Virus record (IMG/VR): IMGVR_UViG_3300009159_000032
Direction: 5' to 3' (one strand)
DNA length: 64,000 bases
Source of the DNA: a virus
Shown: piece after piece, positions 29,878-62,492 of the stretch
Layout: every line of letters starts with the position of its first letter
How positions within the stretch are numbered: position 1 is the stretch's first letter
Made by a program: the position numbers and the translations under genes
The notes under the pieces: generated by a model
The model's database searches: none
The model's input: only the letters and a program-made list of their open reading frames with translations
What the model was told of the DNA's origin: nothing

Positions 29878-30699
29878 ATGGAATATTACAATACACTAGG
29901 AATAACCAAAGATGCTGGCCCCGATGAAATCAAACGGGCTTATCGCAGTCTTGCATCTAAACATCATCCAGATAAAGGTGGCGACACTGCAACATTCCAA
30001 AAGATACAAGAGGCATACGCAACACTAAGCGACCCTCAGAAAAAATCCGAATACGATAATCCAAGGCCTCAAATGGAGGGATTCCATTTTGGTGGAGGTG
30101 GTATGCCTCAAGGATTTGAACAATTTTTTCATCAGTTTGGACCAAACATTGGAGACCTATTTGGTAGGAATAGGGCCATGCGTAATCGAAACATTAATCT
30201 AGAAACACAAATTGATTTAGAAGAAGCATATCGAGGTAAGGATGTCATTGCCAGTTATCGCCTAGGTAACAACAGTGAAAGAACATTTGAAGTAAAAATC
30301 CCCCCCGGCGTACATGACGGAGTAACTTTAAGAATTGCAGGTGCAGGTGATAATCAATATCAACAGTTACCTCCAGGCGATGCAATGTTAACTGTAAGAG
30401 TCCGACAGCATTCAAAATTTCAGCGTAACGGCAATGACCTAGTAGAACAAATTACAATTTCAGCGTTTGATGCCATGTTAGGCCGTGACTTAGAGATAAC
30501 AACCATCGATGGAAATAAATTAACCGTAGGCATAAAAGAAGGAACACAACCTGGCAACATGTTAAGAATACAAGGGTATGGTATGCCTGATTTGAACAAT
30601 CCCAATATCAAAGGTAATCATATGTTGATCATTAATGTTCAAATACCAAATAACCTTACTGAATATCAAAAGAATACAATCCGTTCTATATTACCTTAA
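29878..30699 (+). CDS. dnaJ: DnaJ/CbpA-like co-chaperone (J domain plus C-terminal domains, no Zn finger)
   Basis: YYNTLG, HPDKGG, F..IQEAY..LSD, a G/F-rich linker, and KIPPGV/GDAML C-domain. Confidence 0.92.
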   Translation: MEYYNTLGITKDAGPDEIKRAYRSLASKHHPDKGGDTATFQKIQEAYATLSDPQKKSEYDNPRPQMEGFHFGGGGMPQGFEQFFHQFGPNIGDLFGRNRAMRNRNINLETQIDLEEAYRGKDVIASYRLGNNSERTFEVKIPPGVHDGVTLRIAGAGDNQYQQLPPGDAMLTVRVRQHSKFQRNGNDLVEQITISAFDAMLGRDLEITTIDGNKLTVGIKEGTQPGNMLRIQGYGMPDLNNPNIKGNHMLIINVQIPNNLTEYQKNTIRSILP

Positions 30700-30707
30700 A
30701 TATTATT

Positions 30708-31202
30708 ATGATGAAAATTATTACTTTCCCCGATCCCATTCTTAGAGAAAGAATGCCAGAATTTGATTTTAAAAATCCTGTTATGGATCCAAAAGAATTA
30801 GAAAGAGAAATGATAGCAACTATGTTTGCCAATGACGGTATGGGACTAGCAGCCAATCAAATTGGTGTTCGAGCTCGAATGTTTGTTATGGGAGATAAAA
30901 GAAATTTCCTAATGGCCAAAGCATACTTTAATCCTATCATTGTTGCTAATACAACAGATATACATGATTTGGAAGAGGGATGTTTGAGTTTTCCTGGAGT
31001 TTATGTTAATATAAAAAGACCTACTGGGATACAAGTAGAATATCAAAATGCTGACGGTGAAACAGAAAGAGCAGAATTTCAAGGATATGATTGTAAATGT
31101 TTTTTACATGAGTATGATCATTTAGAAGGAATTACCTATCAAGATAGAGTAAGCACTTTGAAATGGGCATTGGCAGTTAAACAATCAAAAAAGAGGAAAT
31201 AA
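30708..31202 (+). CDS. def: peptide deformylase
   Basis: GMGLAANQIG, EGCLS, HEYDHLEG. Confidence 0.95.
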   Translation: MMKIITFPDPILRERMPEFDFKNPVMDPKELEREMIATMFANDGMGLAANQIGVRARMFVMGDKRNFLMAKAYFNPIIVANTTDIHDLEEGCLSFPGVYVNIKRPTGIQVEYQNADGETERAEFQGYDCKCFLHEYDHLEGITYQDRVSTLKWALAVKQSKKRK

Positions 31203-31207
31203 AAATA

Positions 31208-33478
31208 ATGTTAGAACCAAACAGCGATCTAGAAAAGATTTTTGAAAGAGCAGTTTCGATTGCTTCAAAAAATCAACACGAGTATATCACACTTGAACAT
31301 TTTCTTTATAGTATTGTAACCGACGAAACGTTCAATGCAATACTAAAAGATTTTGGTGCAGAAGTAGATCAGCTAAAAAAGAATTTGGAAAAGTTTATCA
31401 AGGACGATCTGGCAGATATTAAAACTGACAAAGAAGACTATCGTCCTAAAAAGACCAATACTGTTGAACGTATGTTAAACCGTGCATTTACACAGGTGTT
31501 GTTTGGTGGTCGTAATGTCATTGAGCCGGTTGATTGTTTTATCAGTATTTTCAGCGAAAAGAAAAGTTTTGCTAATTTTTTCTTACGTAAAGCAAAGATT
31601 GAAAAAGATAAATTTATTGAGTTTATTGAAAACAGTCCTATGGGAGAAGGTGACGAAATTAGTGAAGCTAGCGGAAATCAATTAGAAAGAATGATTGTAC
31701 AATTCTGCACTAACTTGACTAACAAAGTTAAACAGAAAAAGATTGATCCAGTTATTGGTCGAGAAAAAGAAATTGAAGAGATTCAATTGGCTCTGGCCCG
31801 TAGACAAAAATCCAACGTTATGTTGATTGGCGATCCTGGTGTTGGCAAGACTGCTATTGCAGAAGGACTTGCACGTAAGATCGAAGAAGGCAAAGTTCCT
31901 AAATTTATTCAAGACCACACTGTCTACAGTCTAGACATCAGTGGATTACTAGCAGGCAGCAAGTATCGAGGCGATTTTGAAGAACGTTTAAAAATGGTCA
32001 TTACTGCACTTGAAAAGAAAAAGAATTGTATTCTATTCATTGACGAAGCACACATGATGAACGGTGCGGGTGCAGCCGGAGGGGGTAGTAACGACATGGC
32101 TAATATGCTGAAGCCGGCATTAGGCAAAGGCACACTTAAAGTCGTTGCCTCAACCACGTGGGAAGAATTCCGTAAACACTTTGAAAAGGATCGTGCCCTA
32201 ATGCGTCGATTCCAACGTGTGATTGTGAATGAACCAAACGAAGCAACTTCTATTAAGATTATAAAAGGTCTTAAAAAGTATTACGAACAACATCACGGTG
32301 TTAAGATTACTAATCAAGCTGTCATTGATAGTGTAAAATACAGTATCAAGTATATGACTGATAAACGCCTGCCAGACAAAGCCATTGATTTAATTGACTG
32401 TGCCTGTGCTCGCTTTAAAGTACGTGATCAAGAAAACGGTATTGTTGACCACGACGAAATTGTTTTTGAAGTTAGTAAACTAACAGGTCTTCCATTAGAT
32501 CAAATTGCTGCAAAAGAAAATAAAAATCTCAAAGACCTTGACAAGAATATGCGTAGCAAAGTGTATGGTCAAGAATCTGCAATTGAAATTTTGTTAGATA
32601 AAATCTTTATTGCTCAAGCAGGTTTAAAATCTCTAAACAAACCTGTAGGTAGTTTCTTGTTTACTGGACCAACAGGCGTTGGTAAAACTGAAACTGCAAA
32701 AGTGCTGGCCGCAGGTATGAGTGTAGAACTTGTACGTTTTGATATGAGTGAGTATCAAGAGAAACACAGTGTTGCCAAGTTTATCGGTGCTCCTCCAGGA
32801 TATGTTGGTTTTGAAGACAATGCCGGACTGCTGATCACTAAACTACAAGAACATCCTAACTGTATCTTGTTATTTGATGAGATTGAAAAAGCACATCCGG
32901 ATGTTAGTAATGTCCTATTACAACTAATGGACAATGGCTACGTTACAGGTAGCAACGGTAAAAAAGCAGATGGCCGCAATGCTATTCTTATCATGACCAG
33001 TAACTTAGGGGCCGCTGATGCAGAACGCAATGCTGTAGGCTTTGGTAGTCTTGAAAGAGATGATGACGGTAAAGATGCTGTTAACAGTTTCTTTAAGCCA
33101 GAATTCCGCAATCGTTTAGACGGTATTATTAAGTTTGGAAAACTTGATCATAACACAATGGCTAAAATTGTTAAGAAGTTTATTGACGAACTTAATAGTC
33201 TGCTTAAAGATAAGAATGTTCACGTTAAACTTAATGCAGATGCTGCTGAACTATTAATCAAGAAAGGCTTTAATCGTAAAATGGGTGCCCGCCCACTGCA
33301 ACGTACTATTGACGACATGATTAAAAAGCCACTAAGTAAAGAAATTTTATTTGGTAGACTTGTTAACGGTGGCATTATTGAAATTACAGTTAAGAACAAC
33401 CAACTGTCAATAACATACCCTGAGATTCTTTCAGTTGAGGCTACAAGTGATAAAGATAAAGAGACTGAAAACCAATAA
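31208..33478 (+). CDS. clpA: ClpA-like double-AAA+ unfoldase
   Basis: Clp N-domain, two Walker A motifs (GDPGVGKT, GPTGVGKT), pore loops KYRG and GYVG, VGF ClpP-docking loop, GARPL. Confidence 0.92.
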   Translation: MLEPNSDLEKIFERAVSIASKNQHEYITLEHFLYSIVTDETFNAILKDFGAEVDQLKKNLEKFIKDDLADIKTDKEDYRPKKTNTVERMLNRAFTQVLFGGRNVIEPVDCFISIFSEKKSFANFFLRKAKIEKDKFIEFIENSPMGEGDEISEASGNQLERMIVQFCTNLTNKVKQKKIDPVIGREKEIEEIQLALARRQKSNVMLIGDPGVGKTAIAEGLARKIEEGKVPKFIQDHTVYSLDISGLLAGSKYRGDFEERLKMVITALEKKKNCILFIDEAHMMNGAGAAGGGSNDMANMLKPALGKGTLKVVASTTWEEFRKHFEKDRALMRRFQRVIVNEPNEATSIKIIKGLKKYYEQHHGVKITNQAVIDSVKYSIKYMTDKRLPDKAIDLIDCACARFKVRDQENGIVDHDEIVFEVSKLTGLPLDQIAAKENKNLKDLDKNMRSKVYGQESAIEILLDKIFIAQAGLKSLNKPVGSFLFTGPTGVGKTETAKVLAAGMSVELVRFDMSEYQEKHSVAKFIGAPPGYVGFEDNAGLLITKLQEHPNCILLFDEIEKAHPDVSNVLLQLMDNGYVTGSNGKKADGRNAILIMTSNLGAADAERNAVGFGSLERDDDGKDAVNSFFKPEFRNRLDGIIKFGKLDHNTMAKIVKKFIDELNSLLKDKNVHVKLNADAAELLIKKGFNRKMGARPLQRTIDDMIKKPLSKEILFGRLVNGGIIEITVKNNQLSITYPEILSVEATSDKDKETENQ

Positions 33479-34139
33479 GCTGTTTTTTAACAAGTGGCCT
33501 TACAAGGTCAGTTGTAAAGTTTCTGGTGCAAGCAGGGTTGTTGCACTAGGCTTAGATCGTGCCGAAAAATGGTGTAAGGGAGAGTGGTCACCTCCTTTTA
33601 ATTCCTCTCGTATGAATGTTACTGATAAACCAGATCTATTAAAGTTTGTTAGGTCCATTAAAAGTTTAACTCTATTAAAAGAAGACGTTAAGGTTAGAGC
33701 CGAAGGCGCACATTTTAATATGTTTTTTAAAGATCCTACAATTTTGAAAAAAATTGAAAGGAAACTTAGTCCCTGGATTGAAAGCATTACTGAACCTAAT
33801 AGTCAAGAAGAACACGACTTTTTAATGTCTGGTAACAGTAAAAAAGTTCTCTGTGACGAAATACCCAAAGGCAAATATGTGTTTAAAGTGTATCTCAAAG
33901 AATCTATAAAATCAGATACACGAGAACAGTTCCTTCAATGGAGTGAAAAATACGGAGAGGATATAATTTTAGTCAGTCCTACAACATTGCGATGGTTAGC
34001 AGGGCAAAAATTGTACAAGCAAGACCCGTTTTTCTATGTCAACAACGCCTCAATGATGACTATGGTTAGAATTTTCCTTGGTGACAACGTAAGACGTGTG
34101 CATGAATACGTGCCCAGAAATAAGCTAGAACCAGTATAA
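33447..34139 (+). CDS. hypothetical protein (start uncertain)
   Basis: About 230 aa ORF overlapping the clpA end. Confidence 0.75.
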   Translation: MIKIKRLKTNKLFFNKWPYKVSCKVSGASRVVALGLDRAEKWCKGEWSPPFNSSRMNVTDKPDLLKFVRSIKSLTLLKEDVKVRAEGAHFNMFFKDPTILKKIERKLSPWIESITEPNSQEEHDFLMSGNSKKVLCDEIPKGKYVFKVYLKESIKSDTREQFLQWSEKYGEDIILVSPTTLRWLAGQKLYKQDPFFYVNNASMMTMVRIFLGDNVRRVHEYVPRNKLEPV

Positions 34140-34142
34140 ATA
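34135..34142 (+). promoter_or_regulatory. T4 late promoter consensus TATAAATA
   Basis: Exact consensus 21 nt upstream of 34164. Confidence 0.75.
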
Positions 34143-34163: not shown

Positions 34164-34625
34164 ATGCCATCATTAAGTAAAAGTTTCAAATTTGTTGTTC
34201 ATACAGGAGTAGGCTCAACCGCTACTAGTGTAGCAGTAGGATATCCTTTGTATCCCTTTGGAATCTCTGGTACACAGATTTTTACTAGTATAAAAGAGCA
34301 GGGTGCCGGTTATTACGGTACTACTAACGGGTTACATACCCTAGTGGTAGCAACTACCCCAAGTTTTAGAGGTACTGCAACTGTACAGGCAACACTAACA
34401 ACAGACCCTCAAGAAGCAGATTGGTTCAATGTCAGTCCTGCAGAATTCACTTATACAGCTTCAAGTCCAGGATATATCCCCGGACAGTTAATAGGTGCAA
34501 ACCCCAATGGCACTAGCCCCGGTCCTAGAAACGATTACTCAACATTTAATGGTCAATTTACTTGGTTACGTACACGTATTGCAATCGACGAAGGTGCTGT
34601 ACTGTCTATCAAGTACAACTACTAA
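34164..34625 (+). CDS. hypothetical, possibly virion beta-sandwich protein
   Basis: 153 aa, Thr/Gly-rich, behind a late promoter. Confidence 0.7.
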   Translation: MPSLSKSFKFVVHTGVGSTATSVAVGYPLYPFGISGTQIFTSIKEQGAGYYGTTNGLHTLVVATTPSFRGTATVQATLTTDPQEADWFNVSPAEFTYTASSPGYIPGQLIGANPNGTSPGPRNDYSTFNGQFTWLRTRIAIDEGAVLSIKYNY

Positions 34626-34665: not shown

Positions 34666-35043
34666 ATGCTATTGAACGAATTTTTTGGGTCTATTAATCT
34701 AAAAACAAATACTGAATCTTCAAAAAAAGAAGAACACAAAAAAGTTAAACAACAGGCCCTTGCTGACGATATTTTTGAATATATCATTAATAATAATAAG
34801 CTACACAAAAATGTATTCTTTCCCATTGCCGAAAAAATAGTTAAAGAAGCAACTAAAGAACATGATCCAAAAATGTGGATGCCTATAGTTAACAAAGGCT
34901 GTATGGAATTTTACAATCACATAAAATTAAAAGATAATCCCAAAGAACTTTTTACAGAAGAATTCCGTGAAGAATTGTGTCACAAAATGGCAGAACACTA
35001 CAACCGTGATATATTAACCGGCATATATAATCTAGGAAAATAA
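34666..35043 (+). CDS. hypothetical protein with MLLNEFF leader
   Basis: 125 aa. The leader resembles that of the next gene (MLLNQLF). Confidence 0.8.
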   Translation: MLLNEFFGSINLKTNTESSKKEEHKKVKQQALADDIFEYIINNNKLHKNVFFPIAEKIVKEATKEHDPKMWMPIVNKGCMEFYNHIKLKDNPKELFTEEFREELCHKMAEHYNRDILTGIYNLGK

Positions 35044-38000
35044 ATGCTGTTAAATCAATTATTTTCTCCTAAAAAATTATTCGAGGGCGGCAACTTAGCC
35101 AGTCACAAAGCTGACGGACAACCTATGCCAGGATGGCAGGGGATTCCTGGACAACATCAAGCACAAGAACTAGATTTAAACGTACACAACCGTACAGAAG
35201 TAGTAGCTGTACTATCTGATTTATTACACGGTATTAATGATGCATTTGCACAACAATTTAAAGAACCGCTTTGGCATGAAAATTCTGTAAAGGCTCAAAA
35301 GTTCTTAAGTGGTAGTACTATGCGATTCTTTGATAAGAAAATTTCAGACGAAGAATTTGTACGTGTCAAACCTACAGTAGGTGATATTGATACACAGGCG
35401 CCCGATAAACACGAAGGAACAATCAAACAATTCCTTACAGGATTAATTGGTAAGAAAGTAGGCGATGCTAAATTTATTGGATTTAGTGCTGGTAACAATC
35501 AATACACTAGTATGTGGGAAGTTTTACTAAAGGATCTTCCAGTTAAATTACAGATCGACTTTGAATACGGAGCACACGATCCAGAAACTGGATTACCCAC
35601 TCCGTGGCAAGAATACAGTCATAGCAGTTCTTGGGAAGATTTATCAGCAGGTATCAAAGGTGTATTTCACAAATACATCGATCGCGCCTTGCCATACGCT
35701 TCTACTGTTAGCACTAAGTATGTTGCTCGTGTATTAAAGAAAAGTACAAAAATCAGTGATGAACCTGTAACAGATTCAGATTACAGTTTTGCTGTCAGTG
35801 GTCAAGGCGGTGGTGGTGTAAGTAGAAAGTATGTTCCTTATAATGATCCAGCTACTGGTGCTCCTATGGAAAGAGACGGCATACCAGTTATGCAGTTATT
35901 AGATCCAGCAAACAGACAATACATTCAAAATCTTGGACAACAATTTGAAATTTTCTTTGGTCGTAAACCCAAAGGTAATGATCAGCAACTTAAAAATAGT
36001 TTTGTGGGCACTGTAGAACTAGCCAACAAATATCTAGACGACCAACAACGTACAGAATTATTCAACAGATTTGTATCTATATGTTTCGAACCTGGTAGTC
36101 AAATGATTACCAAAGGCGACCCAGCTAGAGATCGCAATATTAAAATGGCTGCTATTGATTACATGATTCAAAACATGAAACTTGCTAATCCTCAGGGCAT
36201 GAGAAAGCAGGCTATTAAAACAGCCATGGACTATGAGCAGGCCTTTACTTCAAAGCAGGCAGGTAAGGGCTTGAACGAAGCAGAAGTTAAGGCACAGTTT
36301 CGTAAAAACATGCCTCACCTTAAGGATCTAAAGCCCATTGATTTTTTAGATTTGTTAGATGAATTGCATCAAGGCAACGGACAATTTAAATTAAAGAATA
36401 TTCCATTAAATGTCAAAGTAGATGGCTTTGGTGGCCGCTTTGGTAAGAACTCAGACGGCAAGCCATTTATGGCCACAAGTAGAACAGAGCCGCGTTATCA
36501 AGCAGGCTTTGTTGACTATCATCAAAAGAAAGGCACAACTGATCCCGAAATACTAGGTCGTGCTCAACTTTTTGACGATTTGTTTGCAGAAATGATGAGT
36601 GCTGTACAACTTGTTGACAGCAAACTAGGTCCTGATTTTTTAATTAACAAACAAGTAACCTGCGAAGTTTTATATCTGCCATTTGCTACAGAAACTCCAG
36701 AAGGCAGGTTAAAATTTGTAGGTATACACTATGACAAACTTCCACAGGGTGTTCAATTAGCACTAGTTCCGTTCCGCGTAACAGATGCAACCACAGGCGA
36801 AGACCTTCCAGAGTCAAATAAAATAGTTAAAGAATTAACCAGCGTAGGTCGTCAAGGCAGTGTAATGTTTATTGACAACAGTCTAACACAAAACGAAGAA
36901 TTAGATGTTACTGAAATTATTAATGTGTTAGATAATATTGAAGAATTAAAACAGATTGTGTCGGACACTGCTGGTAAAAGAGATCGTGCTAGTTTAGATC
37001 TTAGACGTCAAGTTGAAGAAAAATTACAACCAGTTAAAGTAGAACTTGAAAAAGCAATTATTAACGATCCTAACATCATTGGTAAAGATTTATTGGGCAA
37101 AGACTACGAAGGTATTGTTATCAATAGTCGCCTTGGTCCTATTAAAATTACCAGTCAAGAACAACGTGATGTTATTAGTGCTAAAAATGCAGCTAAAGTA
37201 AGTGCAAGAACAGAACAGCCACGTGCAAATTCTAATAAAACAGCAGTAGTAGCAATAGGATCTTTTATTGGTCATAAAGGGCACGAAGAACTTTGGGACT
37301 ATACTGTTAAGAAAGCAGAACAAGTTGGCGGTGATCCTTATCTGTTTATCGGTAATGCAGAAGGCAAAGACGATCCTATTCCTCCTTCAGTTAAAGTACA
37401 GACATGGCATAAACTATATCCAGAATATGCTAAGAATATCAGCACAGTACAAGAAGGCGGACAGCTAATACAAAAGATCAAACACGAATTAATTAATCCA
37501 CTTCCAGGTAAACCTCCACGCTATGATAACATTATTATCATGGTTGGCGAAGATAGAGCAGGTATTAACATGCCTAATGCTTTAATGAAAGCTGTGAACA
37601 AATTCCAAGGATATGAACATGTTAAGGTAAGCCTTGATGTTACTCCGCGTGGCACTGGAATTAGCGGAACTGCGTTACGTAATAGTCTAAAAAATGATCC
37701 TCCAGAAAAAGCATTGGCTACATGGTCTAATGCATTTGATGTAAACAAACTTGGTGTTGATTGGATCAAACACTTAATGGATATAACGAGAAAAGGTATG
37801 GGCATACAACAAACACAACCACAACAACCTGCATCGCAGCCCACACCAATGGCTGAGATGAGACTGTTCAACGCTCTTGTAGCACCAAAACATAGTATGC
37901 AAGAAGGCTTAGGTAAACACGTTGCTAGTGCTGCATTAGCAGGTGCTATGGCATTCGGTGGTGCAGGAGCACATGCCCAGAGTTCAGGAGAAGATTTTTT

Positions 38001-39117
38001 ACCCGATATTGTTGCTCACGTTACTTTTAAAGTTAACGGCAAAGAAATATCAAAAGATATTAATCTAGGAACAACATATAAATCTCCCGGTGAAGCGTCA
38101 GCTGCACTTGAAAAATTCTTAAAATCTAAAGGCATCAAGTATTTTGAATATAGTCTTGAGCGTGTAAAATCAAAAGATGACGACTATATAGATAAAACTC
38201 CGGCATCAGATACAAGTACATCGGGTTCCGTAGACAGTCGTCCTTACAGTTCAACTGGAAATTCACCAAGTAACTATATGGCTAAAGAAAATGTAGAAGA
38301 AGCTAAGTCTGCTAGTAGACGTTGGCATGATGCATTACAGCGTGAAAAAGAACGCCGTGAACGCAATGAACGTGCAGGTCAAGAACTTCTAAATCCTAAA
38401 AAGAAAGAAGAACCTAAAGAAAAAGATGTGGCGGAAGGCTCCTTAGAAGCAAATACTCCAAATCCTGTTGTAGTAGTACAAGACTTAAAAGGTAAGATTT
38501 TAGATAAAGTAAATCTATCAATGGCTGTACAAAAATATAAATTAGGCAACCCGCAAGATATAAAAAATCAATTAGCACATCAAAACTATACTCAAATTGG
38601 AAATTATATTATAGTGTCACCTATGAGCGGACAGCCGCAAGATGCAACAACGCAAGGTGTGGCGGAAGGTGACAGTGGTGCAAAATATAAAGTAAGAAGT
38701 ATTGGGCACGATGCCAAAGGTGATTATTATATCAGCCCAAGCACAGGAAAAAAAGTTTATAAAAAGGGTGCCAAAGTCGGTGATCACGAAAATCCCAAAA
38801 CGGGCGAGCACAAAGGTGTAGCGGAAGGTGATAGTCCAGCAATGGCACATACTACCAAGAGCTTGGAAAATCCTCCTAAGGTTATGCAACACCGTGCCAA
38901 ACGTGATCAAGAACGTGATAAGCAACTACAATATAGAAATATTTCTAAACGAGATGAAGATCTAGACGAAAAAATCAAAGGCGCAGACGGCAAAGCCTGC
39001 TGGCCCAACTATCGTTACAACGGTACAGAGAACGGCTCAGACAAGTGTGTTAAAATTGGCGAAGCATGGGAATTAGAAATGTCTAATGCTATTAGTAAAC
39101 TATTTGAAAACCGATGA
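35044..39117 (+). CDS. multidomain polyprotein: Pol-beta-like nucleotidyltransferase, RNA/DNA-ligase-like domain, HIGH nucleotidyltransferase, and C-terminal mini-modules
   Basis: LSGS...VGDIDT...QIDFE; NVKVDG...YEGIVI...PIKI; GSFIGHKGH...ISGTALR; then modules separated by xVAEG. Confidence 0.75.
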   Translation: MLLNQLFSPKKLFEGGNLASHKADGQPMPGWQGIPGQHQAQELDLNVHNRTEVVAVLSDLLHGINDAFAQQFKEPLWHENSVKAQKFLSGSTMRFFDKKISDEEFVRVKPTVGDIDTQAPDKHEGTIKQFLTGLIGKKVGDAKFIGFSAGNNQYTSMWEVLLKDLPVKLQIDFEYGAHDPETGLPTPWQEYSHSSSWEDLSAGIKGVFHKYIDRALPYASTVSTKYVARVLKKSTKISDEPVTDSDYSFAVSGQGGGGVSRKYVPYNDPATGAPMERDGIPVMQLLDPANRQYIQNLGQQFEIFFGRKPKGNDQQLKNSFVGTVELANKYLDDQQRTELFNRFVSICFEPGSQMITKGDPARDRNIKMAAIDYMIQNMKLANPQGMRKQAIKTAMDYEQAFTSKQAGKGLNEAEVKAQFRKNMPHLKDLKPIDFLDLLDELHQGNGQFKLKNIPLNVKVDGFGGRFGKNSDGKPFMATSRTEPRYQAGFVDYHQKKGTTDPEILGRAQLFDDLFAEMMSAVQLVDSKLGPDFLINKQVTCEVLYLPFATETPEGRLKFVGIHYDKLPQGVQLALVPFRVTDATTGEDLPESNKIVKELTSVGRQGSVMFIDNSLTQNEELDVTEIINVLDNIEELKQIVSDTAGKRDRASLDLRRQVEEKLQPVKVELEKAIINDPNIIGKDLLGKDYEGIVINSRLGPIKITSQEQRDVISAKNAAKVSARTEQPRANSNKTAVVAIGSFIGHKGHEELWDYTVKKAEQVGGDPYLFIGNAEGKDDPIPPSVKVQTWHKLYPEYAKNISTVQEGGQLIQKIKHELINPLPGKPPRYDNIIIMVGEDRAGINMPNALMKAVNKFQGYEHVKVSLDVTPRGTGISGTALRNSLKNDPPEKALATWSNAFDVNKLGVDWIKHLMDITRKGMGIQQTQPQQPASQPTPMAEMRLFNALVAPKHSMQEGLGKHVASAALAGAMAFGGAGAHAQSSGEDFLPDIVAHVTFKVNGKEISKDINLGTTYKSPGEASAALEKFLKSKGIKYFEYSLERVKSKDDDYIDKTPASDTSTSGSVDSRPYSSTGNSPSNYMAKENVEEAKSASRRWHDALQREKERRERNERAGQELLNPKKKEEPKEKDVAEGSLEANTPNPVVVVQDLKGKILDKVNLSMAVQKYKLGNPQDIKNQLAHQNYTQIGNYIIVSPMSGQPQDATTQGVAEGDSGAKYKVRSIGHDAKGDYYISPSTGKKVYKKGAKVGDHENPKTGEHKGVAEGDSPAMAHTTKSLENPPKVMQHRAKRDQERDKQLQYRNISKRDEDLDEKIKGADGKACWPNYRYNGTENGSDKCVKIGEAWELEMSNAISKLFENR

Positions 39118-39383
39118 AACAATATAGAATATCAGGATTCCCAATAGATGCATCAACTGATCCAGATTGTGCATTGTCTCCTGACGATCCTATACATAAA
39201 CTAAAGGCCAGTAATTGGCTAGGTGAATTAGGCGCCGAAGCTAGGATGGCAGAATACAATAACAGCAGTCGTACGCCTACATGGAATGATCCACGTAGCG
39301 AAAATGCACGTATTATGCGTGAACAAGGTATTAAACCAGGTACTCCTGCTTGGTTCGAGCTTTGGTTTGGAAAAAATAAATAA
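39114..39383 (+). CDS. hypothetical protein
   Basis: 89 aa, ATGA-coupled, ending in IKPGTPAWFELWF. Confidence 0.75.
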   Translation: MKQYRISGFPIDASTDPDCALSPDDPIHKLKASNWLGELGAEARMAEYNNSSRTPTWNDPRSENARIMREQGIKPGTPAWFELWFGKNK

Positions 39384-39389
39384 CATATT

Positions 39390-39764
39390 ATGAGAATATC
39401 TGAATTACTCACCGAAGTTAAGTCTGGCAAAATCAGCAAGAGAGCACAACAACCCAGTCGTGGCATTAACACCTATGGCGATGTTGAACACGCAAACAGC
39501 GACTATGTAGGCTTTAAGCTAGGGCAGGCTATGGCAATGAGTGACGGTTCGGGTGCTCCGATAAACATTGACCCTAAGAGCTGGTACGGTAAAAAGAAAA
39601 CTGTGCATCCTTATTCAGAAATAGAACAACAGATGTTTAAAGATGCGGCTAAGGTAGTCGGAGCTAGTTATAAAGATATAAACAAAGGCGATATGAAAAG
39701 CAAAGAGCTAGACAGTACTCACAATATTAGTCCTGTGCCTGATAGAAAGAAGCTAGCAAAATGA
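39390..39764 (+). CDS. putative internal head protein (MRISELLTE leader)
   Basis: Leader resembles the T4 CTS MKTYQEFIAE. Confidence 0.65.
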   Translation: MRISELLTEVKSGKISKRAQQPSRGINTYGDVEHANSDYVGFKLGQAMAMSDGSGAPINIDPKSWYGKKKTVHPYSEIEQQMFKDAAKVVGASYKDINKGDMKSKELDSTHNISPVPDRKKLAK

Positions 39765-39925
39765 AAATACAAGAACTCTTAGAAACAGCAACAGGTATGG
39801 GCACCAGTGCTATTGCAACCAGCATGCCTGCAAAGAAACCTAAGAAGGGACAGAAATTAAATCTGCTTGGGACTCCTGTATCTGAGACAGATAAAGAAGT
39901 TAAGATAATAAAGAGACAACCATGA
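39761..39925 (+). CDS. 54-aa putative internal head peptide missing from the ORF track (MKIQELLETATGMGTSAIATSMPAKKPKK...)
   Basis: ATGA overlaps at both ends. Same leader as its neighbours. Confidence 0.75.
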   Translation: MKIQELLETATGMGTSAIATSMPAKKPKKGQKLNLLGTPVSETDKEVKIIKRQP

Positions 39926-40773
39926 ATCATCCAGACCACGAAATAGAAATGGCACGTTCCGAATTATATTCAATAGCCAAATATGCTATTGCACTTCACG
40001 AGATGTTAGAAAATGTCAGTGAACTAGACGGCATGGAAGGTTGGCAACAGAGTAAAATCACTCGTGCAGCTGACTACATGGAAAGTGTTTATCAAAGCCT
40101 TACACATGAAATGAAATTTGGAGAGTCTGCTCCCAAAGGTTGGGAAGGTACCGTTAAGGCCATGAAGAAACACAAGGAAATTGATAATCCTTGGGCACTA
40201 GCACACTATATGAAAAACAAAGGCTACAAGAGTCACAAGAAAGAAGAAGGTGTGGCAGAAGCAGGATATGGTCGTAACAAAGATTACGATCCCGGATTTG
40301 CCAGTCCACACGCACCAAAGTTAACACCTATTGGTGGTCCAAAACAAGATGACGAATACGTAAACGGTAATCCAGTAAACAATATTGAAGTATCTATTAA
40401 CGGTCGTCCTTGGAAGATATTTCCAGGCAAGGGACCAGATGGTAGTCGGGCATTTTTCCAACAAAAACAAGATGTTGACGAAATGTGTAAACGCAAGACT
40501 GCCGCAACTGGTAAGAAATGGAGTTGGGGTGTTACCGGTGAGCCTGCTACCAATGAAAGTACTGTGCAGGAACACAAGAAAGGTGTACGTGCTATGAAGC
40601 ATACCACTAAGCCAAGAAACCCAGTAATGGCTGGAGACAAACCAGGTAAAGCAACTGTTACTCACAAAAACAAAAAGAAAGATCAACAACGCGGTGTAGA
40701 AAAACACAAAGGCAAAGAACCTGCTTATGAATCGCGCCTGTGGAACGCACTGTCACAACACTTAGAAAAATAA
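39922..40773 (+). CDS. modular basic polyprotein-like protein
   Basis: Modules separated by FGE/, GVAE/, TNE/ and VQE/. Contains one copy of the DNA repeat. Confidence 0.7.
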   Translation: MNHPDHEIEMARSELYSIAKYAIALHEMLENVSELDGMEGWQQSKITRAADYMESVYQSLTHEMKFGESAPKGWEGTVKAMKKHKEIDNPWALAHYMKNKGYKSHKKEEGVAEAGYGRNKDYDPGFASPHAPKLTPIGGPKQDDEYVNGNPVNNIEVSINGRPWKIFPGKGPDGSRAFFQQKQDVDEMCKRKTAATGKKWSWGVTGEPATNESTVQEHKKGVRAMKHTTKPRNPVMAGDKPGKATVTHKNKKKDQQRGVEKHKGKEPAYESRLWNALSQHLEK

Positions 40774-42026
40774 TGCGTATACAAGAGCTAGTTGAAACAT
40801 CAAAGCGTACACCAGATTTGATGGATGCGTTTAAGGTTTTTATTCCTCTAGCTATGAAAGAGCTAGAGATTGATCAGCTACCTGATATTAAATTACAATC
40901 AAAATTAGAATTAGATGAACAACCTTCATTCGGACGTTTTGTTCAACATGAAAACAGAATTTATCTAGCTTTGGAAAATCGTCATCCTATTGATATACTT
41001 AGAACATTTGCACATGAACTTGTACACTACAAACAAGGTACAGAACACGAGTTAGATTCTAATAGCGGCGACACTGGTAGTCCACAAGAAAACGAAGCAC
41101 ACGAAGTAGCTGGTGTTATTATGAGACATTTTGATAAAATGTATCCTGAGTTTTTTGATACTTCTGCTGTTGATATCAGTGAAAGTTTGCGAAGTAAGGC
41201 AGCAGGGCTGGCATTAGGTGCTTTGTCTCTAGGTGCTCAAGCTACTGCACCACAGATAGTCCAACAAATTGTCGAGCCAGGTGATACAGTTTATAGTATA
41301 GCAAGACAAAATAATGTACCGCCTGCTGAAATTATGAAACTTAATAAAATGGGGCAAAAGACTAAACTTGAAATTGGTCAGAAAGTAAAAGTTCCAGATT
41401 ATTCAAAACCTATTAGCAAAATGCCTGCTACAGTAACTCCTACTGTTAAGCAAGAACCTACTAAAATATCTCCGGATGCACAGGCAGCTCCAATGAAAGT
41501 ATTGCCTAAAGTAGGCAGTGAAGTTTCTTTATTAAGTAATAATACGGATGCTGAGGCTGCATTGCAATCTGCTGCCAAAGCCGCAGGGCTTAAAGGCGCA
41601 GAGCTGGCACAGTTTATGGCGCAGACTAGACATGAAAGTTGGGACTTTGGCAAAATGAAGGAAGTAGGTAACAAGAAAAAATTTGCCAAATATGAAACTC
41701 CACGCAAAGCAAGACAATTAGGCAATAAAGTAAAAGGCGACGGTGAAAGATTTAAAGGTCGTGGCTTTATACAATTAACTGGCAGAGATAATTACACTAG
41801 AGCCAGTGAACAAATTTTTGGTGATGACAGACTAGTTCGTAAACCTGAATTAGCCAGCGATCTTAACATTGCTGCTAAGATTGCACTTTGGTATTGGAAA
41901 AATCAAGTTAGACCTAATGTAAATAACTTTAATAATACAAAAGAAGTGACTAATGCAATTAATCCGGGTCTAAGTGGACTACAAGACCGACACAATAAAT
42001 TTAAGGAGTATCTAGCAGTATTATGA
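40773..42026 (+). CDS. zincin-like HExxH domain + LysM + GH19 hydrolase, MRIQELVE leader
   Basis: TAATG overlap gives the start at 40773. FAHELVH...ENEAH; VEPGDTVYSIARQNNV LysM; AQFMAQTRHES...FKGRGFIQLTGRDNY. Confidence 0.85.
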   Translation: MRIQELVETSKRTPDLMDAFKVFIPLAMKELEIDQLPDIKLQSKLELDEQPSFGRFVQHENRIYLALENRHPIDILRTFAHELVHYKQGTEHELDSNSGDTGSPQENEAHEVAGVIMRHFDKMYPEFFDTSAVDISESLRSKAAGLALGALSLGAQATAPQIVQQIVEPGDTVYSIARQNNVPPAEIMKLNKMGQKTKLEIGQKVKVPDYSKPISKMPATVTPTVKQEPTKISPDAQAAPMKVLPKVGSEVSLLSNNTDAEAALQSAAKAAGLKGAELAQFMAQTRHESWDFGKMKEVGNKKKFAKYETPRKARQLGNKVKGDGERFKGRGFIQLTGRDNYTRASEQIFGDDRLVRKPELASDLNIAAKIALWYWKNQVRPNVNNFNNTKEVTNAINPGLSGLQDRHNKFKEYLAVL

Positions 42027-42715
42027 GAGTCAATGAATTTATAAACGAAGGCTGGAGCCAAAAATATAAAAAAAGCATTAACTGTTCGCACCCAAAAGGT
42101 TTCAGTCAACGTGCTCACTGTGCTGGCAAAAAGAAGCATAACGAAAGCATAGAAACAGAAATGACCTGCCCTGACTGCGGTCTTTGTGAGGCACACGGCA
42201 ATAGTAAAATTTACGATAAGTGCTGGACAGGTTTTAGAAAAGTACCAGGAAAGAAACGTGGTGAAGATGGTAGCTGTAAGAAGATTGGTGAAGATGAAGA
42301 ATTACATCAAGAGTTTGACTTAATTGAACAAATGGTTGAGCATATTGCAAGACAACACGCTATTGATCCTGAATTTGTCTGGGAAGATCTAGAAAGTCTC
42401 ACAGACGACGAACTATATGTATTTGCTGTCACACAAGAACCTGTAATGGAAGATTGGCAAAAAGTTAACAAAAGAGATAAAACCGATGGCATGAGCCGTA
42501 AAGCTGTTAATGCTTATCGAAGAGAAAACCCGGGTAGTAAATTAAAGACCGCCGTAACTACCAAGCCAAGTAAACTAAAGCGTGGTAGCAAGGCCAGCAA
42601 GCGTAGAAGTAGCTATTGTTCTAGGTCCGCTGGACAAAAGAGTATGCATCATATTGATTGCAGCAAAACTCCAGACAAGGCAATTTGCAAAGCACGACGT
42701 CGTTGGAACTGCTGA
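42023..42715 (+). CDS. Cys-rich basic modular protein (MRVNEFINE leader)
   Basis: Modules CSHPKGFSQRAHC, CPDCGLC, CWTG...SCKKIGE and YCSRS...KARRRWNC. Confidence 0.75.
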   Translation: MRVNEFINEGWSQKYKKSINCSHPKGFSQRAHCAGKKKHNESIETEMTCPDCGLCEAHGNSKIYDKCWTGFRKVPGKKRGEDGSCKKIGEDEELHQEFDLIEQMVEHIARQHAIDPEFVWEDLESLTDDELYVFAVTQEPVMEDWQKVNKRDKTDGMSRKAVNAYRRENPGSKLKTAVTTKPSKLKRGSKASKRRSSYCSRSAGQKSMHHIDCSKTPDKAICKARRRWNC

Positions 42716-42912
42716 TGCGAATAACAGAGCTTATTGAAAACTTTGCAGATGGTCGTAATCCACAGGATAAAGGCGATGCTAAACGTCACGGAATTAATAC
42801 CAAAGCCAGTGTAAGTAGTTTGCGTAAAACTGCCAAGCAAGGTGGACGCAAAGGACAACTAGCACATTGGCTGGCTAATATGAAAGCTGGTAGAGCTAAG
42901 AAGAAACATTAA
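42715..42912 (+). CDS. small basic protein (MRITELIE leader)
   Basis: TGATG overlap gives the start at 42715. 65 aa, Lys/Arg-rich. Confidence 0.75.
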   Translation: MRITELIENFADGRNPQDKGDAKRHGINTKASVSSLRKTAKQGGRKGQLAHWLANMKAGRAKKKH

Positions 42913-42915
42913 TAT

Positions 42916-43593
42916 ATGACCGAAGAATTGCACACTCAACCAATATATCGAAAACATGAGATACCTCTTGTTAATTATCTAATGACTTTTAAAGATGCCC
43001 TAACAGAAGAATTTTTAAAATTTCACGATAATTGGTTTAATCAAGATGAAGATGTAAAAGGCCTTATACTAACTAGACCAGCAGGTCGAAACGTTGACAA
43101 TTATTTAAGCGACCCTAATGCATGGAAATCTTCGTGGATCAGATACGAATATACTCCCGGAGGTAAAGTTCTTAATAATGATAATACTATTTGGACTTTT
43201 CCAACAGCACATAAAATAATGAAACAGTATGAAGGGCAACTTGGAATTGTTATGTATAGTGTGTTAGAAGCAAACAGTGTTATCAGTAGGCATACTGGTC
43301 CAGAAAATCGTACTGGCGAATATTTAAGAATTCATTTGCCTCTTATTGTGCCAGACGGTGATATATTTTTAGAAGTGAACGGGGAAGAAATAGATTGGAG
43401 CGAACCTTTTGGTTTTAATAATCAGTATATTCACAGTGCTCATAATTATAGTCCTAAAAGAAGATTGGTATTTTTGATCGATATTAAAAGAAGTTTTCTA
43501 GGATTACCTCGAGGAGTTCATTTTCGTGCAAAAGATCATATAGCATATCTAGCATCAGTTCAACCTTTTAAAAGAAAAGGTATTACAATATGA
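42916..43593 (+). CDS. aspartyl/asparaginyl beta-hydroxylase-family oxygenase
   Basis: ISRHTG...LRIHLPLIVP...FNNQYIHSAHN...RLVFLID. Confidence 0.8.
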   Translation: MTEELHTQPIYRKHEIPLVNYLMTFKDALTEEFLKFHDNWFNQDEDVKGLILTRPAGRNVDNYLSDPNAWKSSWIRYEYTPGGKVLNNDNTIWTFPTAHKIMKQYEGQLGIVMYSVLEANSVISRHTGPENRTGEYLRIHLPLIVPDGDIFLEVNGEEIDWSEPFGFNNQYIHSAHNYSPKRRLVFLIDIKRSFLGLPRGVHFRAKDHIAYLASVQPFKRKGITI

Positions 43594-44129
43594 GAGACTT
43601 ATTGACCATTATAGAAGCTGTAGAAACTAAAAAATTAACTACAGAAAAACTGCCCTACGGCAAGTCTGAACTTAATCCTGTCATGAGTGATGCCACTATC
43701 AATTATCATTACGAAAAACTAGCCAAGGGGTATGCAGAAAAATATAACAAAGGCGAAGGTGATGATGCTTTTAATATTGCAGGAAGTTTTCTTCATAATT
43801 TATTCTTTCCTCAATTACAGCCTCCCAAAACAAATAATAAACCTGTAGGTGCAAGTTTAGCACTTATTGAAAAGAAATTTAAATCATTTGAAAAATTTCA
43901 AGAAGAAATGCAAACTGAAGCTATGAAAATACAAGGCAGCGGATGGATTTACATGAGCACATCCGGTGCTATTAAAACAATTAAGAATCACGAGGTTAGA
44001 AAAGATATAGCATTGTTGATTGACTGGTGGGAACATGCCTGGGCATTGGACTACCAAGCAGACAAGCAAAAATATATCAAAAACATTTGGCGTATAATTA
44101 ATTGGGAAGTTGTTAACTCAAGACTATAA
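43590..44129 (+). CDS. sod: Fe/Mn superoxide dismutase with N-terminal leader
   Basis: LPY..SEL.P.MS..TINYHY, FLHNLFF, QGSGW, IDWWEHAW..DY: all four metal ligands present. Confidence 0.92.
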   Translation: MRDLLTIIEAVETKKLTTEKLPYGKSELNPVMSDATINYHYEKLAKGYAEKYNKGEGDDAFNIAGSFLHNLFFPQLQPPKTNNKPVGASLALIEKKFKSFEKFQEEMQTEAMKIQGSGWIYMSTSGAIKTIKNHEVRKDIALLIDWWEHAWALDYQADKQKYIKNIWRIINWEVVNSRL

Positions 44130-61238: not shown

Positions 61239-62492
61239 ATGACATCAGTAATGAAGACCGAAAAGGTTAAAAAAGCAGTTCCTACTAAAGAATACACTGC
61301 TTCAGAAAAATCCAAAATTTTAGATAAACTTATCACTGCCCGTGTAGGTTTATTGTTGCGTCATCCGTTTTTTGGCAATCTTGCTACACGTATGAAATTA
61401 ATTGATGCCAGTGATTGGTGTCCTACACTAGCCACAGACGGACGTAATTTTTATTACAATAACGATTTTGTTTACAAGTTAAAACCAAAAGAAGCAGAGT
61501 TTGGCTTTGCTCACGAAGTATTGCACAATGTATTTGATCACATGGGGCGTCGTGATCATCGAGATCCAGTTATTTCTAACATTTCCGCAGACTATGCCGC
61601 AAATCAAATTCTTAAAGATGAAGGTATTGGAGAAGTTCCAAGTTGGATTAAAATTTATCAAGACAACAAATATCGTGGCTGGAGTTACGAACAGATTTAT
61701 GAAGAGCTCGAATCCAAAGCAACTAAAATTGATTTAAGTACACTTGGAGAGTTACTCGACGAACATTTGGATGGTGAAGGTGACGACGGTGACGAGGATG
61801 AAAACGGCAACAAAAATGGTAGCGGTCGTCCAAAATTAACTGCTGAAGAAAAGAAAGCAATCAAAGACGAAATTAAAGAAGCTATGGTTGCGGCTGCTCA
61901 GGCTGCAGGTGCCGGGCGTGTACCGGCAGGTGTACAACGTCTAATCCAAACTTTTACTGAACCTAAAATGGATTGGCGTCAAATGTTGCGTATGAATATC
62001 CAAAGCATTATTAAAAGCAATTTTAGTTTTGCTCGTCCAAATCGCAAGTCACAGCACTGCGGTGCAATTTTGCCCGGTTTGATGAACGAAGAAACAATCG
62101 ATGTAGCAGTAGCTATTGATATGAGTGGCAGTATTTCGGACAAAATGGCCAATGACTTTATCAGTGAAGTCAAAGGTATTATGGACGAATATGTTGACTT
62201 TAAATTGGATCTATGGTGTTTTGATACAGCAGTGTATGGTTACCAACAATTCACAGGCGATAACGCTGACGAAATTATGGAATACAAATGCAAAGGAGGT
62301 GGTGGCACTGACTTTGATGTTAACTACGAGTTCATGAAAGAAAACGACATCAATCCAAAACGTTTCATTATGTTTACAGACGGCTATCCTTGCGGTAGCT
62401 GGGGTGACGAGGATTATTGCGAATCATTGTTCATTGTACACGGAAATGATAAGATCATTTCTCCATTCGGCCAGACTGCACATTATAAATAA
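61239..62492 (+). CDS. metallopeptidase-like (HExxH) + vWA domain protein (DUF2201-like)
   Basis: ATDG, AHEVLH, MIDAS motif IDMSGS, GGGTDF, FTDG. Start MTSVMK. Confidence 0.85.
   Translation: MTSVMKTEKVKKAVPTKEYTASEKSKILDKLITARVGLLLRHPFFGNLATRMKLIDASDWCPTLATDGRNFYYNNDFVYKLKPKEAEFGFAHEVLHNVFDHMGRRDHRDPVISNISADYAANQILKDEGIGEVPSWIKIYQDNKYRGWSYEQIYEELESKATKIDLSTLGELLDEHLDGEGDDGDEDENGNKNGSGRPKLTAEEKKAIKDEIKEAMVAAAQAAGAGRVPAGVQRLIQTFTEPKMDWRQMLRMNIQSIIKSNFSFARPNRKSQHCGAILPGLMNEETIDVAVAIDMSGSISDKMANDFISEVKGIMDEYVDFKLDLWCFDTAVYGYQQFTGDNADEIMEYKCKGGGGTDFDVNYEFMKENDINPKRFIMFTDGYPCGSWGDEDYCESLFIVHGNDKIISPFGQTAHYK
62484..62491 (+). promoter_or_regulatory. T4 late promoter consensus TATAAATA
   Basis: Exact consensus upstream of 62505. 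Confidence 0.6.

Follow-up and report, generated by a model that had tools for sequence, protein, structure and literature searches.

A phage polyprotein with three predicted nucleotidyltransferase domains behind a T4-type leader may be head-packaged cargo for mending nucleic-acid ends

Why would a phage join three different kinds of nucleotidyltransferase in one protein, and where and when would such a protein work? This question was raised by a 64,000-nucleotide stretch of viral DNA (IMG/VR record IMGVR_UViG_3300009159_000032; the whole stretch is referred to here as the window), in which one long open reading frame (ORF; P0001, Table 1) encodes three nucleotidyltransferase-like domains, D1, D2, and D3, behind a short leader. 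An initial annotation of the window had described three such folds between positions 35086 and 37800 and had suggested an injected repair kit. That stretch starts at the codon after the leader LFE and ends inside D3, and the ORF continues for about 430 residues further. The motifs that the annotation quoted were found where it had placed them: LFE at residues 12-14, GS at 90-91, DID at 114-116, IDFE at 171-174, LNE at 410-412, KVDG at 458-461, EGIV at 689-692, HKGH at 744-747, and ISGTALR at 873-879; the motif V lysine lies in IKITS (700-704). The analysis described below favors, tentatively, head-packaged, protease-cut, and injected D1 and D2-D3 enzymes that repair nucleic-acid ends, with RNA somewhat favored as the substrate.

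Sequence methods were nearly silent on this protein; hence, homologues were collected and aligned, and two pieces of the protein (residues 1-420 and 415-940) were folded with AlphaFold. The model of the first piece, which contains D1, had a pLDDT of 91.1 and a pTM of 0.89. When this model was compared with known structures using VIA-align, nucleotidyltransferases of the Pol-beta fold made up nearly all of the top 50 matches (Z 5.0-7.8), including TUT7 (7.8), TdT (7.6), Pol beta (7.4), Pol lambda (7.0), OAS2 (6.8), CdnG (6.6), and ASFV PolX (6.6). The longest structural alignments were to family X polymerases and covered 164-197 residues of the palm and thumb (Z 6.6-7.6, rmsd 3.7-4.7); 195 residues were aligned with TdT, 172 with Pol beta, and 164 of 176 with ASFV PolX. 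Foldseek also placed Pol lambda and Pol beta first (prob 0.99, E 6e-3). The motif pattern of G90-S91, D114-I-D116, and the third carboxylate D172 was invariant in 220-221 of 221 homologues. Because the match list agreed and the GS, DxD, and D172 residues were invariant, we regard the assignment of the modeled D1 to the Pol-beta superfamily as settled, though single Z scores were middling.

Two narrower identities for D1 were dropped, namely a CCA-adding enzyme, which matched no better than many other Pol-beta nucleotidyltransferases, and a CD-NTase, which matched no better than terminal uridylyltransferases (TUTases) and PolX enzymes; both sets of matches were shorter than those to PolX. No Pfam match to the RlaP family (PF10127) was found for P0001 at E<=1 or for 49 D1 homologues at E<=0.1, and D1 had no Pfam PolX match. 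In PHROGs, residues 39-383 fell in a family with no assigned function. A language-model atlas provided leads only: NTP_transf_2 in 33% of one cluster, and DUF6267, for which we found no paper mentioning the name.

The model of the second piece (residues 415-940, D2-D3) had a pLDDT of 94.0. In the case of D2, the best VIA-align match was the RNA ligase NgrRnl (Z 10.5, 194 residues aligned), followed by REL1 (9.6), T4 Rnl2 (9.3), MthRnl (8.8), and Trl1 (8.4); DNA ligases scored 8.2-9.3 (Pmar-Lig 9.3, Afu ligase 8.9). Foldseek matches had E values of 1.8e-5 to 6e-4 and prob 0.9-1.0, with Trl1-LIG at 1.8e-5 and Rnl3 at 1.5e-4. Ligase motifs I, III, IV, and V occurred in D2 in the ligase order, and K458-V-D-G, E541, E689-G690, and K701 were invariant save for gaps. 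Motif V had a single lysine only, and about 150 residues, with a long helix in the model, separated E541 (motif III) from E689 (motif IV). D2 stops about 15 residues past motif V, where D3 begins, and stand-alone D2 proteins (276-306 residues) stop at the same place. No OB-fold domain with motif VI, as found in ATP-dependent DNA ligases, follows D2 motif V; D3 occupies the place of the OB or C-terminal domain of other ligases. Thus, the high-confidence model indicates that D2 has a covalent nucleotidyltransferase (ligase/capping-type) fold, with nick-sealing RNA ligases as the top matches.

Sequence profiles added little for D2. It had no Pfam match to the Rnl1 and Rnl2 families (PF09511 and PF09414) and no Protein Data Bank (PDB) profile match, and a profile search started from stand-alone D2 sequences reached no Pfam-labeled protein. 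When the domain profiles were compared with 67 ORFs of T4 and Va1 using hhalign, T4 Rnl1 ranked first for D2, over motifs IV-V only and with a probability of 8%, which is suggestive only. A Pfam search for Rnl1 and Rnl2 on two partial relative contigs gave no match, and this search was uninformative (the contigs were 40-58% complete, and the Rnl1 control was silent). In PHROGs, residues 434-584 fell in a family with no assigned function.

D3 was the domain with the clearest relatives. VIA-align matched it to PPAT with a Z of 13.5 (151 residues aligned of a 161-residue chain, rmsd 3.2) and to NMNATs with a Z of 11.9-12.8 (NadM 12.5-12.8, M. jannaschii NMNAT 11.9), and Foldseek matched it to 3pxu (E 2e-5, TMt 0.71). 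A PDB profile match to RibF had an E of 6.5e-6. The window copy scored 12.9-14.1 bits on Pfam FAD_syn (PF06574), below the cutoff of 27 and at the HxGH motif; FAD_syn was matched in 16 of 23 D2/D3 homologues, and the D3 homologue of Xanthomonas phage BUDD passed Pfam CTP_transf_like (PF01467; 28.7 versus 21). PHROGs labeled residues 712-926 as 'cytidyltransferase'. H744, H747, and R879 were kept in all ungapped homologues (229-231 of 232), and S874 in 220 of 232. The high-confidence model thus presents D3 as a HIGH-motif nucleotidyltransferase with a Rossmann-like PPAT/NMNAT fold. The initial annotation had named structure prediction and a fold search of each domain as its check, and in the predicted structures and the Foldseek and VIA-align searches all three folds matched the families that it had named.

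To place the protein among its relatives, we relied on an exhaustive search, which yielded 868 cluster representatives at E<=1e-3. The N-terminal 940 residues were 57-99% identical among the best 120 matches, and homologue lengths ranged from 949 to 1919 residues, with the variation in the C-terminal part. The presumed catalytic residues were invariant or nearly so in the 220-232 copies aligned for each domain, even where identity fell to about 25-30%: G90, S91, D114, D116, and D172 in D1; K458, D460, G461, E541, E689, G690, and K701 in D2; and H744, H747, S874, and R879 in D3.

The three domains were fused in 148 of the homologues retrieved. In a syntenic relative, L004, which shares the DnaJ gene, the deformylase gene, the ClpB-like gene, and two small genes, D1 (394 residues) and D2-D3 (514 residues) were separate genes split at the D1/D2 junction. 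The two genes (4848-6032 and 6001-7545) overlap by 32 nucleotides in different frames; the overlap may reflect a genuine gene split, a site of frameshifting, or a mistake in the assembly. In L005-L007, D1, D2, and D3 were three consecutive genes, and in phage BUDD the three genes were neighbors with one gene between D1 and D2. The intervening BUDD gene (L001, 6879-7880) encodes 333 residues and has no counterpart in the fusion; the same region carries queuosine-type genes (QueE and TGT). Xanthomonas phage X1 likewise has D1, D2, and D3 in separate genes. Since D1, D2, and D3 occur as neighboring separate genes in other phages, gene order suggests that the three work as a unit. D1 also occurs without D2 and D3 in Campylobacter phages (Firehammervirus) and Vibrio phages.

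The next question was whether the N terminus resembles a head-loading signal. The leader (12-18 residues) was variable in sequence and length among homologues, and in 130 of 131 it ended in [LIV]-x-E, with an invariant GGN immediately after; its pLDDT in the D1 model was below 50. Leaders such as MKSFKEFLSLLSE or MKQFKNFLNE resemble those of the T4 head proteins IPI (MKTFKEF...), IPII/III (MKTYQEFIAE), and Alt (MELITELFDE), as read from the T4 genome. In T4, the prohead protease gp21 cleaves after L/I-x-E, and a 10-residue capsid-targeting sequence leader suffices for loading foreign proteins into heads (PMC9026906). A gp21-family protease (Peptidase_S77, 89-92 bits) was encoded by two fusion-bearing relatives (contigs of 206 kb and 143 kb).

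Similar sites occurred at particular positions inside the protein. The D1/D2 linker was poorly conserved, and 146 of 148 homologues had [LIVM]-x-E a few residues before the conserved D2 start, usually with A as the next residue. The D2/D3 linker (mean 29 residues), which served as an internal control, had no site of this type in 224 of 228 homologues. In the 60 residues after D3, [LIVM]-x-E was present in 203 of 211. Of 46 stand-alone D1 proteins, 21 began exactly at M-GGN, and the other 25 had a leader that terminated in the site; the leader therefore appears to be a module that can be present or absent, with the enzyme proper beginning at GGN. Two proposals of the initial annotation, that the protein is leader tagged and that D1 could be released separately, were supported by the conserved [LIV]-x-E sites, the split-gene forms, the stand-alone proteins that begin at M-GGN, the presence of a prohead protease of the gp21 type in relatives, and the virion match described below for a D1 homologue.

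A D1 homologue has been detected in phage particles. Specifically, electrospray ionization tandem mass spectrometry of purified Campylobacter phage IBB_35 virions detected the product of gene 1-56 (44,446 Da), which we identified as homologous to D1, with 17% coverage (PMC3322345 supplement). Its orthologue in phage CP220 starts MKLSELMFILE-GGN. Some homologues carried LysM, phage lysozyme, PG_binding_1, or DUF6321 in the C-terminal part. The C-terminal region of the window copy had no Pfam match; in the window, modules of these types sit in adjacent genes with similar leaders.

Two features of the C-terminal region were also observed. The end of the polyprotein (39100-39114) reads ...KLFENR, and a near-terminal hydrophobic-x-E recurs in homologues (...KLIENQLR, ...LLENK, ...KLFEDKK); this recalls the C-terminal trimming of T4 Alt. 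Directly after M-Q-E954 (37906-37977) lies a hydrophobic, Ala/Gly-rich segment, GLGKHVASAALAGAMAFGGAGAHA, which resembles a signal peptide or membrane anchor in mid-protein.

Table 1. Positions of the polyprotein ORF, its predicted parts, and an upstream octamer in the window
Feature	Position	Strand	Description
Whole ORF (P0001)	35044..39117	+	1357 aa, stop codon included
Leader, aa 1-14 (MLLNQLFSPKKLFE)	35044..35085	+	T4-type capsid-targeting-like propeptide, ends L-F-E
D1, aa 15-412	35086..36279	+	Pol-beta-superfamily nucleotidyltransferase, PolX-like palm and thumb; GS 90-91, D114, D116, D172
L-N-E, aa 410-412	36271..36279	+	Predicted prohead-protease site, D1/D2 junction
D2, aa 413-716	36280..37191	+	Predicted covalent (lysine-AMP type) ligase nucleotidyltransferase domain; K458-V-D-G (I), E541 (III), E689-G690 (IV), K701 (V)
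D3, aa 717-925	37192..37818	+	Predicted HIGH-motif nucleotidyltransferase, PPAT/NMNAT-like; H744-K-G-H747, I873-S-G-T-A-L-R879
Post-D3 linker, M-A-E (936-938) and M-Q-E (952-954)	37819..37905	+	Candidate cleavage sites
Variable C-terminal region, aa 955-1357	37906..39114	+	Hydrophobic segment, low-complexity stretches, three VAEG repeats, conserved tail ending L-F-E-N-R
T4 late-promoter-like octamer TATAAATA	34135..34142	+	22 nt 5' of ORF 34164-34625, first in the gene run containing the polyprotein ORF

From the three folds, the active-site conservation, the site pattern, and the gene linkage, we infer the following course of events. The polyprotein would be made late in infection, and its 14-residue leader would act as a T4-like capsid-targeting sequence that brings it into the prohead. 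Given this T4-style head-loading tag, the polyprotein probably enters the head, is cut in two, and accompanies the DNA on injection. Cuts by a prohead protease of the T4 gp21 type would fall after L-F-E14, after L-N-E412, and in the post-D3 linker. One product, of about 46 kDa, would be the PolX-like Pol-beta nucleotidyltransferase D1, and the other would be uncut D2-D3, an RNA-ligase-like lysine-adenylyltransferase joined to an NMNAT/PPAT-like HIGH-motif enzyme, of about 58 kDa; small C-terminal modules would also be freed. All products would be ejected into the cell along with the DNA, and broken nucleic-acid ends would be mended at the very start of infection: D1 would restore the missing nucleotide(s) at a 3'-OH, and D2 would close the break. 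D3 would transfer a nucleoside monophosphate (NMP) to some phosphorylated acceptor. We find this reading credible enough to prefer, though short of probable. RNA is somewhat favored as the substrate because both fold searches had RNA ligases at the top and because an OB domain is absent from D2, and the nearest functional analogy appears to be the pair of RlaP and an RNA ligase in jumbo phages and bacteria. The folds and the tag of the initial annotation stood, and its repair kit is a best guess drawn from the combination of domains.

A more specific proposal for D2-D3 is that it is a self-fuelling ligase. D3 would make or recycle the adenylate donor in cis (e.g., ATP from NAD or another dinucleotide and pyrophosphate, or the reverse), or it would directly adenylylate or deadenylylate 5'-phosphate ends. 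We consider this proposal improbable. If it were true, the injected kit, together with D1, could repair phage or host nucleic acids despite ATP or NAD being drained by abortive-infection defenses.

Several points weigh against the packaged-repair reading. About half of the stand-alone D1 genes are leaderless, which suggests that the D1 enzyme needs no packaging to work. The gene neighbors of the polyprotein are chaperone, protease, and replication genes and not a head module. D1 and D2 had no Pfam, NCBIfam, or PDB sequence or profile match (P0001; for Pfam, also 49 D1 and 23 D2/D3 homologues), so their substrates are judged from the fold alone. Every D1 Z score was below 8, a range that the tool rates as middling, and the DNA-ligase scores of D2 reached to about 1.2 Z below that of the top RNA ligase. 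Classical tRNA repair requires kinase, phosphatase, or 2H end-healing enzymes, and no such enzyme was found beside the gene by Pfam among the flanking genes in the window, L005, and L006. To our knowledge, no known repair pathway has a place for a D3-type enzyme.

The PolX-like shape of D1 makes a DNA target a serious rival. Under this explanation, the same enzymes would act on the incoming phage DNA, with D1 filling gaps or adding (ribo)nucleotides and D2 sealing as in Rnl5/LigD-type 3'-ribo nick sealing; the genome would be guarded from nicking or cutting defenses, or packaged nicks would be closed. The longest alignments of D1 were to gap-filling and end-joining polymerases (Pol beta, lambda, mu, TdT, and ASFV PolX), the best match of D2, NgrRnl, is a nick-sealing enzyme with minimal DNA ligases close behind, and delivery together with the DNA would fit. 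However, D2 lacks the OB or DNA-binding domain that DNA ligases normally require, RNA ligases led both fold searches, and no Ku-like or end-binding partner was seen, and we therefore judge a DNA target unlikely. Somewhat less likely again is an unpackaged, cytoplasmic multi-enzyme for RNA repair of the RlaP-plus-ligase type, whose N terminus and [LIV]-x-E sites would have another cause or none. The 21 leaderless genes among the 46 for stand-alone D1, the many leaderless stand-alone D2 genes, the neighboring peptide deformylase, ClpB-like ATPase, and DNA polymerase genes, and the presence of [LI]-x-E within folded D2 would all agree with it. It does not account for the positions of the sites, which mark the leader end and the D1/D2 linker but not the D2/D3 linker, for the close resemblance of the leaders to T4 IPI and Alt, or for a D1 homologue in virions, and the C-terminal lysozyme, LysM, and PG-binding modules of homologues make little sense for a cytoplasmic enzyme.

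The initial annotation had also raised the restoration of NAD-type cofactors and the making or decoying of a nucleotide signal. In a small-molecule explanation of this kind, the protein would be an injected counter-defense kit: D1 would make or mimic a nucleotide signal in the manner of CD-NTases or OAS, and D3 would rebuild NAD, or a similar dinucleotide cofactor, that NADase defenses had depleted. D3 was equally close to NMNAT (Z 12.5) and PPAT, D1 also matched OAS2 and CdnG, and head-packaged enzymes of NAD and ADP-ribose metabolism have been predicted to occur widely among myoviruses (PMC9503650). This explanation is doubtful at best: the fit of D1 to CD-NTases did not exceed its fit to TUTases or PolX enzymes and covered shorter stretches, the ligase domain, always fused or adjacent to D3, would be left without a role, and a few injected NMNAT molecules would need a supply of NMN. 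The occurrence of D1 alone in Campylobacter and Vibrio phages, and the fact that Iyer et al. (2017, PMC5512222) count Pol-beta nucleotidyltransferases as protein-modifying domains in polyvalent proteins that are injected, would suit a D1 that nucleotidylylates host proteins (AMPylation or similar), with D2-D3 in an unrelated role. The PolX-like palm and thumb and the conserved linkage to a ligase point instead to nucleic acid, and protein modification is accordingly more doubtful still. Least of all do we expect one or more domains to be an inactive scaffold that fills the head; the conservation of the putative catalytic residues makes this unlikely, since the metal-binding, lysine-nucleophile, and HxGH/SxTxxR residues were invariant, save for gaps, in more than 200 homologues.

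How far does the predicted packaging route resemble known ones? Leader-targeted, gp21-processed, and ejected head proteins are classical T4 biology. Like T4 IPI, IPII, IPIII, and Alt, the window protein has a short N-terminal leader of similar sequence that ends in L/I-x-E, and, as with the T4 internal proteins, there is a gp21-family protease in its relatives and a hypervariable locus of leader-bearing genes. T4 Alt is also trimmed at its C terminus (PMC9026906), and the window protein has a conserved L-x-E near its own. Unlike the T4 internal proteins, it is a predicted 1357-residue polyprotein with three nucleotidyltransferases and internal candidate cleavage sites, and not a single small protein or ADP-ribosyltransferase. 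Multidomain injected polyvalent proteins of phages and conjugative elements are likewise already known. In the work describing them (PMC5512222), they too combine many enzymatic domains in one phage protein that is predicted to be packaged and injected, and Pol-beta nucleotidyltransferases are listed; they are typically linked to MuF or portal domains or carry their own zincin-type peptidase, whereas the window protein would be targeted by a T4-type leader and cut by the prohead protease. The passages of that work covered here mention no RNA ligase beside the 2H domains of polyvalent proteins and no combination of a ligase with a HIGH-motif nucleotidyltransferase.

For the enzymes themselves, the closest comparison is with RlaP. 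Pol-beta nucleotidyltransferases of this family travel with RNA ligases in jumbo phages (PMC7824862), and RlaP extends the 3'-OH of damaged RNA by 1-2 NMP ahead of ligation (bioRxiv 10.64898/2025.12.29.696909). D1 is similarly a Pol-beta nucleotidyltransferase linked to an RNA-ligase-type enzyme, in fused, two-gene, and three-gene forms. Unlike in the RlaP modules, D1 falls outside PF10127 and D2 outside the Rnl Pfam models, neither a Pnk nor a phosphoesterase partner is present, a HIGH-motif enzyme is always attached as a third component, and the proteins bear capsid-targeting leaders. D2 shares the adenylyltransferase fold of the Rnl2/Rnl5 ligases (T4 Rnl2, Trypanosoma brucei REL1, and Naegleria NgrRnl; Z 9.0-10.5, 185-201 residues aligned) but differs from them in having no detectable sequence similarity, a spacing of about 150 residues between motifs III and IV, one motif V lysine instead of two, and a PPAT/NMNAT-like domain in place of the C-terminal or OB domain. 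D3 has the compact HIGH-motif, Rossmann-like fold of PPAT (CoaD), NMNAT (NadM, NadD, and archaeal forms), and the FMN adenylyltransferase domain of RibF (Z 11.5-13.5), with HxGH and ISxTxxR; unlike in these enzymes, its sequence similarity is confined to the HxGH segment, and it invariably occurs fused to, or next to, a ligase domain. We found no paper in the literature on the trio, on the D2-D3 fusion, or on packaged ligase- or polymerase-type enzymes.

The surroundings of the gene were also examined. The window is a portion of the large genome of a giant T4-related phage, and nearly all ORFs of at least 100 residues lie on the + strand. It also encodes long collagen-like tail fibers and a family B DNA polymerase that is 43-51% identical to the polymerases of the jumbo phages Phosso and Atu_ph07 and the Rak2/CBB group. 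An AGGA ribosome-binding site lies 8 nucleotides before the polyprotein ORF. The octamer TATAAATA occurred twice in the 64 kb (34135-34142 and 62484-62491), compared with about 7 copies expected by chance, and the upstream copy is, on weak, single-site evidence, a candidate late promoter for the gene run that contains the polyprotein. The first ORF of that run (34164-34625) encodes a beta-rich product that is structural in appearance. Farther upstream (29878-33478) lie a DnaJ-like gene, a peptide deformylase gene (30708-31202), and a gene for a 756-residue ClpB/ClpA-like double-AAA ATPase (31208-33478), and their order was identical in L004 (194-3807).

The region from 34666 to 44129 looks like a hypervariable locus of head-cargo genes. 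Leader-like starts, each with hydrophobic-x-E, were seen at 34666 (MLLNEFF), 39390 (MRISELLTE), 42023 (MRVNEFINE), and 43590 (MRDLLTIIE), and others lay inside called ORFs, namely MRIQELVE in the ORF from 40740 and MRITELIE in the ORF from 42658. The latter ORF (42658-42912) bears a leader and encodes a small peptide ending ...GGRKGQLAHWLANMKAGRAK. A peptide with this ending was also found as a module inserted in the D1/D2 linker of several homologues (P0076, P0067, and P0032); because it is a separate ORF here and a linker insert there, modules appear to move between genes of the locus. ORF 40740-42026 has a metalloprotease-like N-terminal part and a GH19-type endolysin C-terminal domain, ORF 42023-42715 encodes DUF6321, and 42916-43593, in the same gene run, encodes a 225-residue protein of the Asp/Asn beta-hydroxylase family (PF05118).

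If the packaged-repair reading is correct, the heads of giant T4-related phages would come stocked with finished enzymes for nucleic-acid repair, which would reach the cell ahead of phage gene expression. Polymerase- and ligase-type enzymes would then be added to a short list of injected phage enzymes that includes Alt, DarB, and the virion RNA polymerases of phages N4 and phiKZ. Members of the family are abundant in metagenomes, and the D1 and D2 domains lie outside Pfam coverage. No function has been described for a ligase domain that is constantly paired with a PPAT/NMNAT-like one, so assays of the pair could reveal new enzymology. The leader-plus-site grammar would also make it possible to predict, by a rule based on sequence, which proteins of uncultured phages are head cargo.

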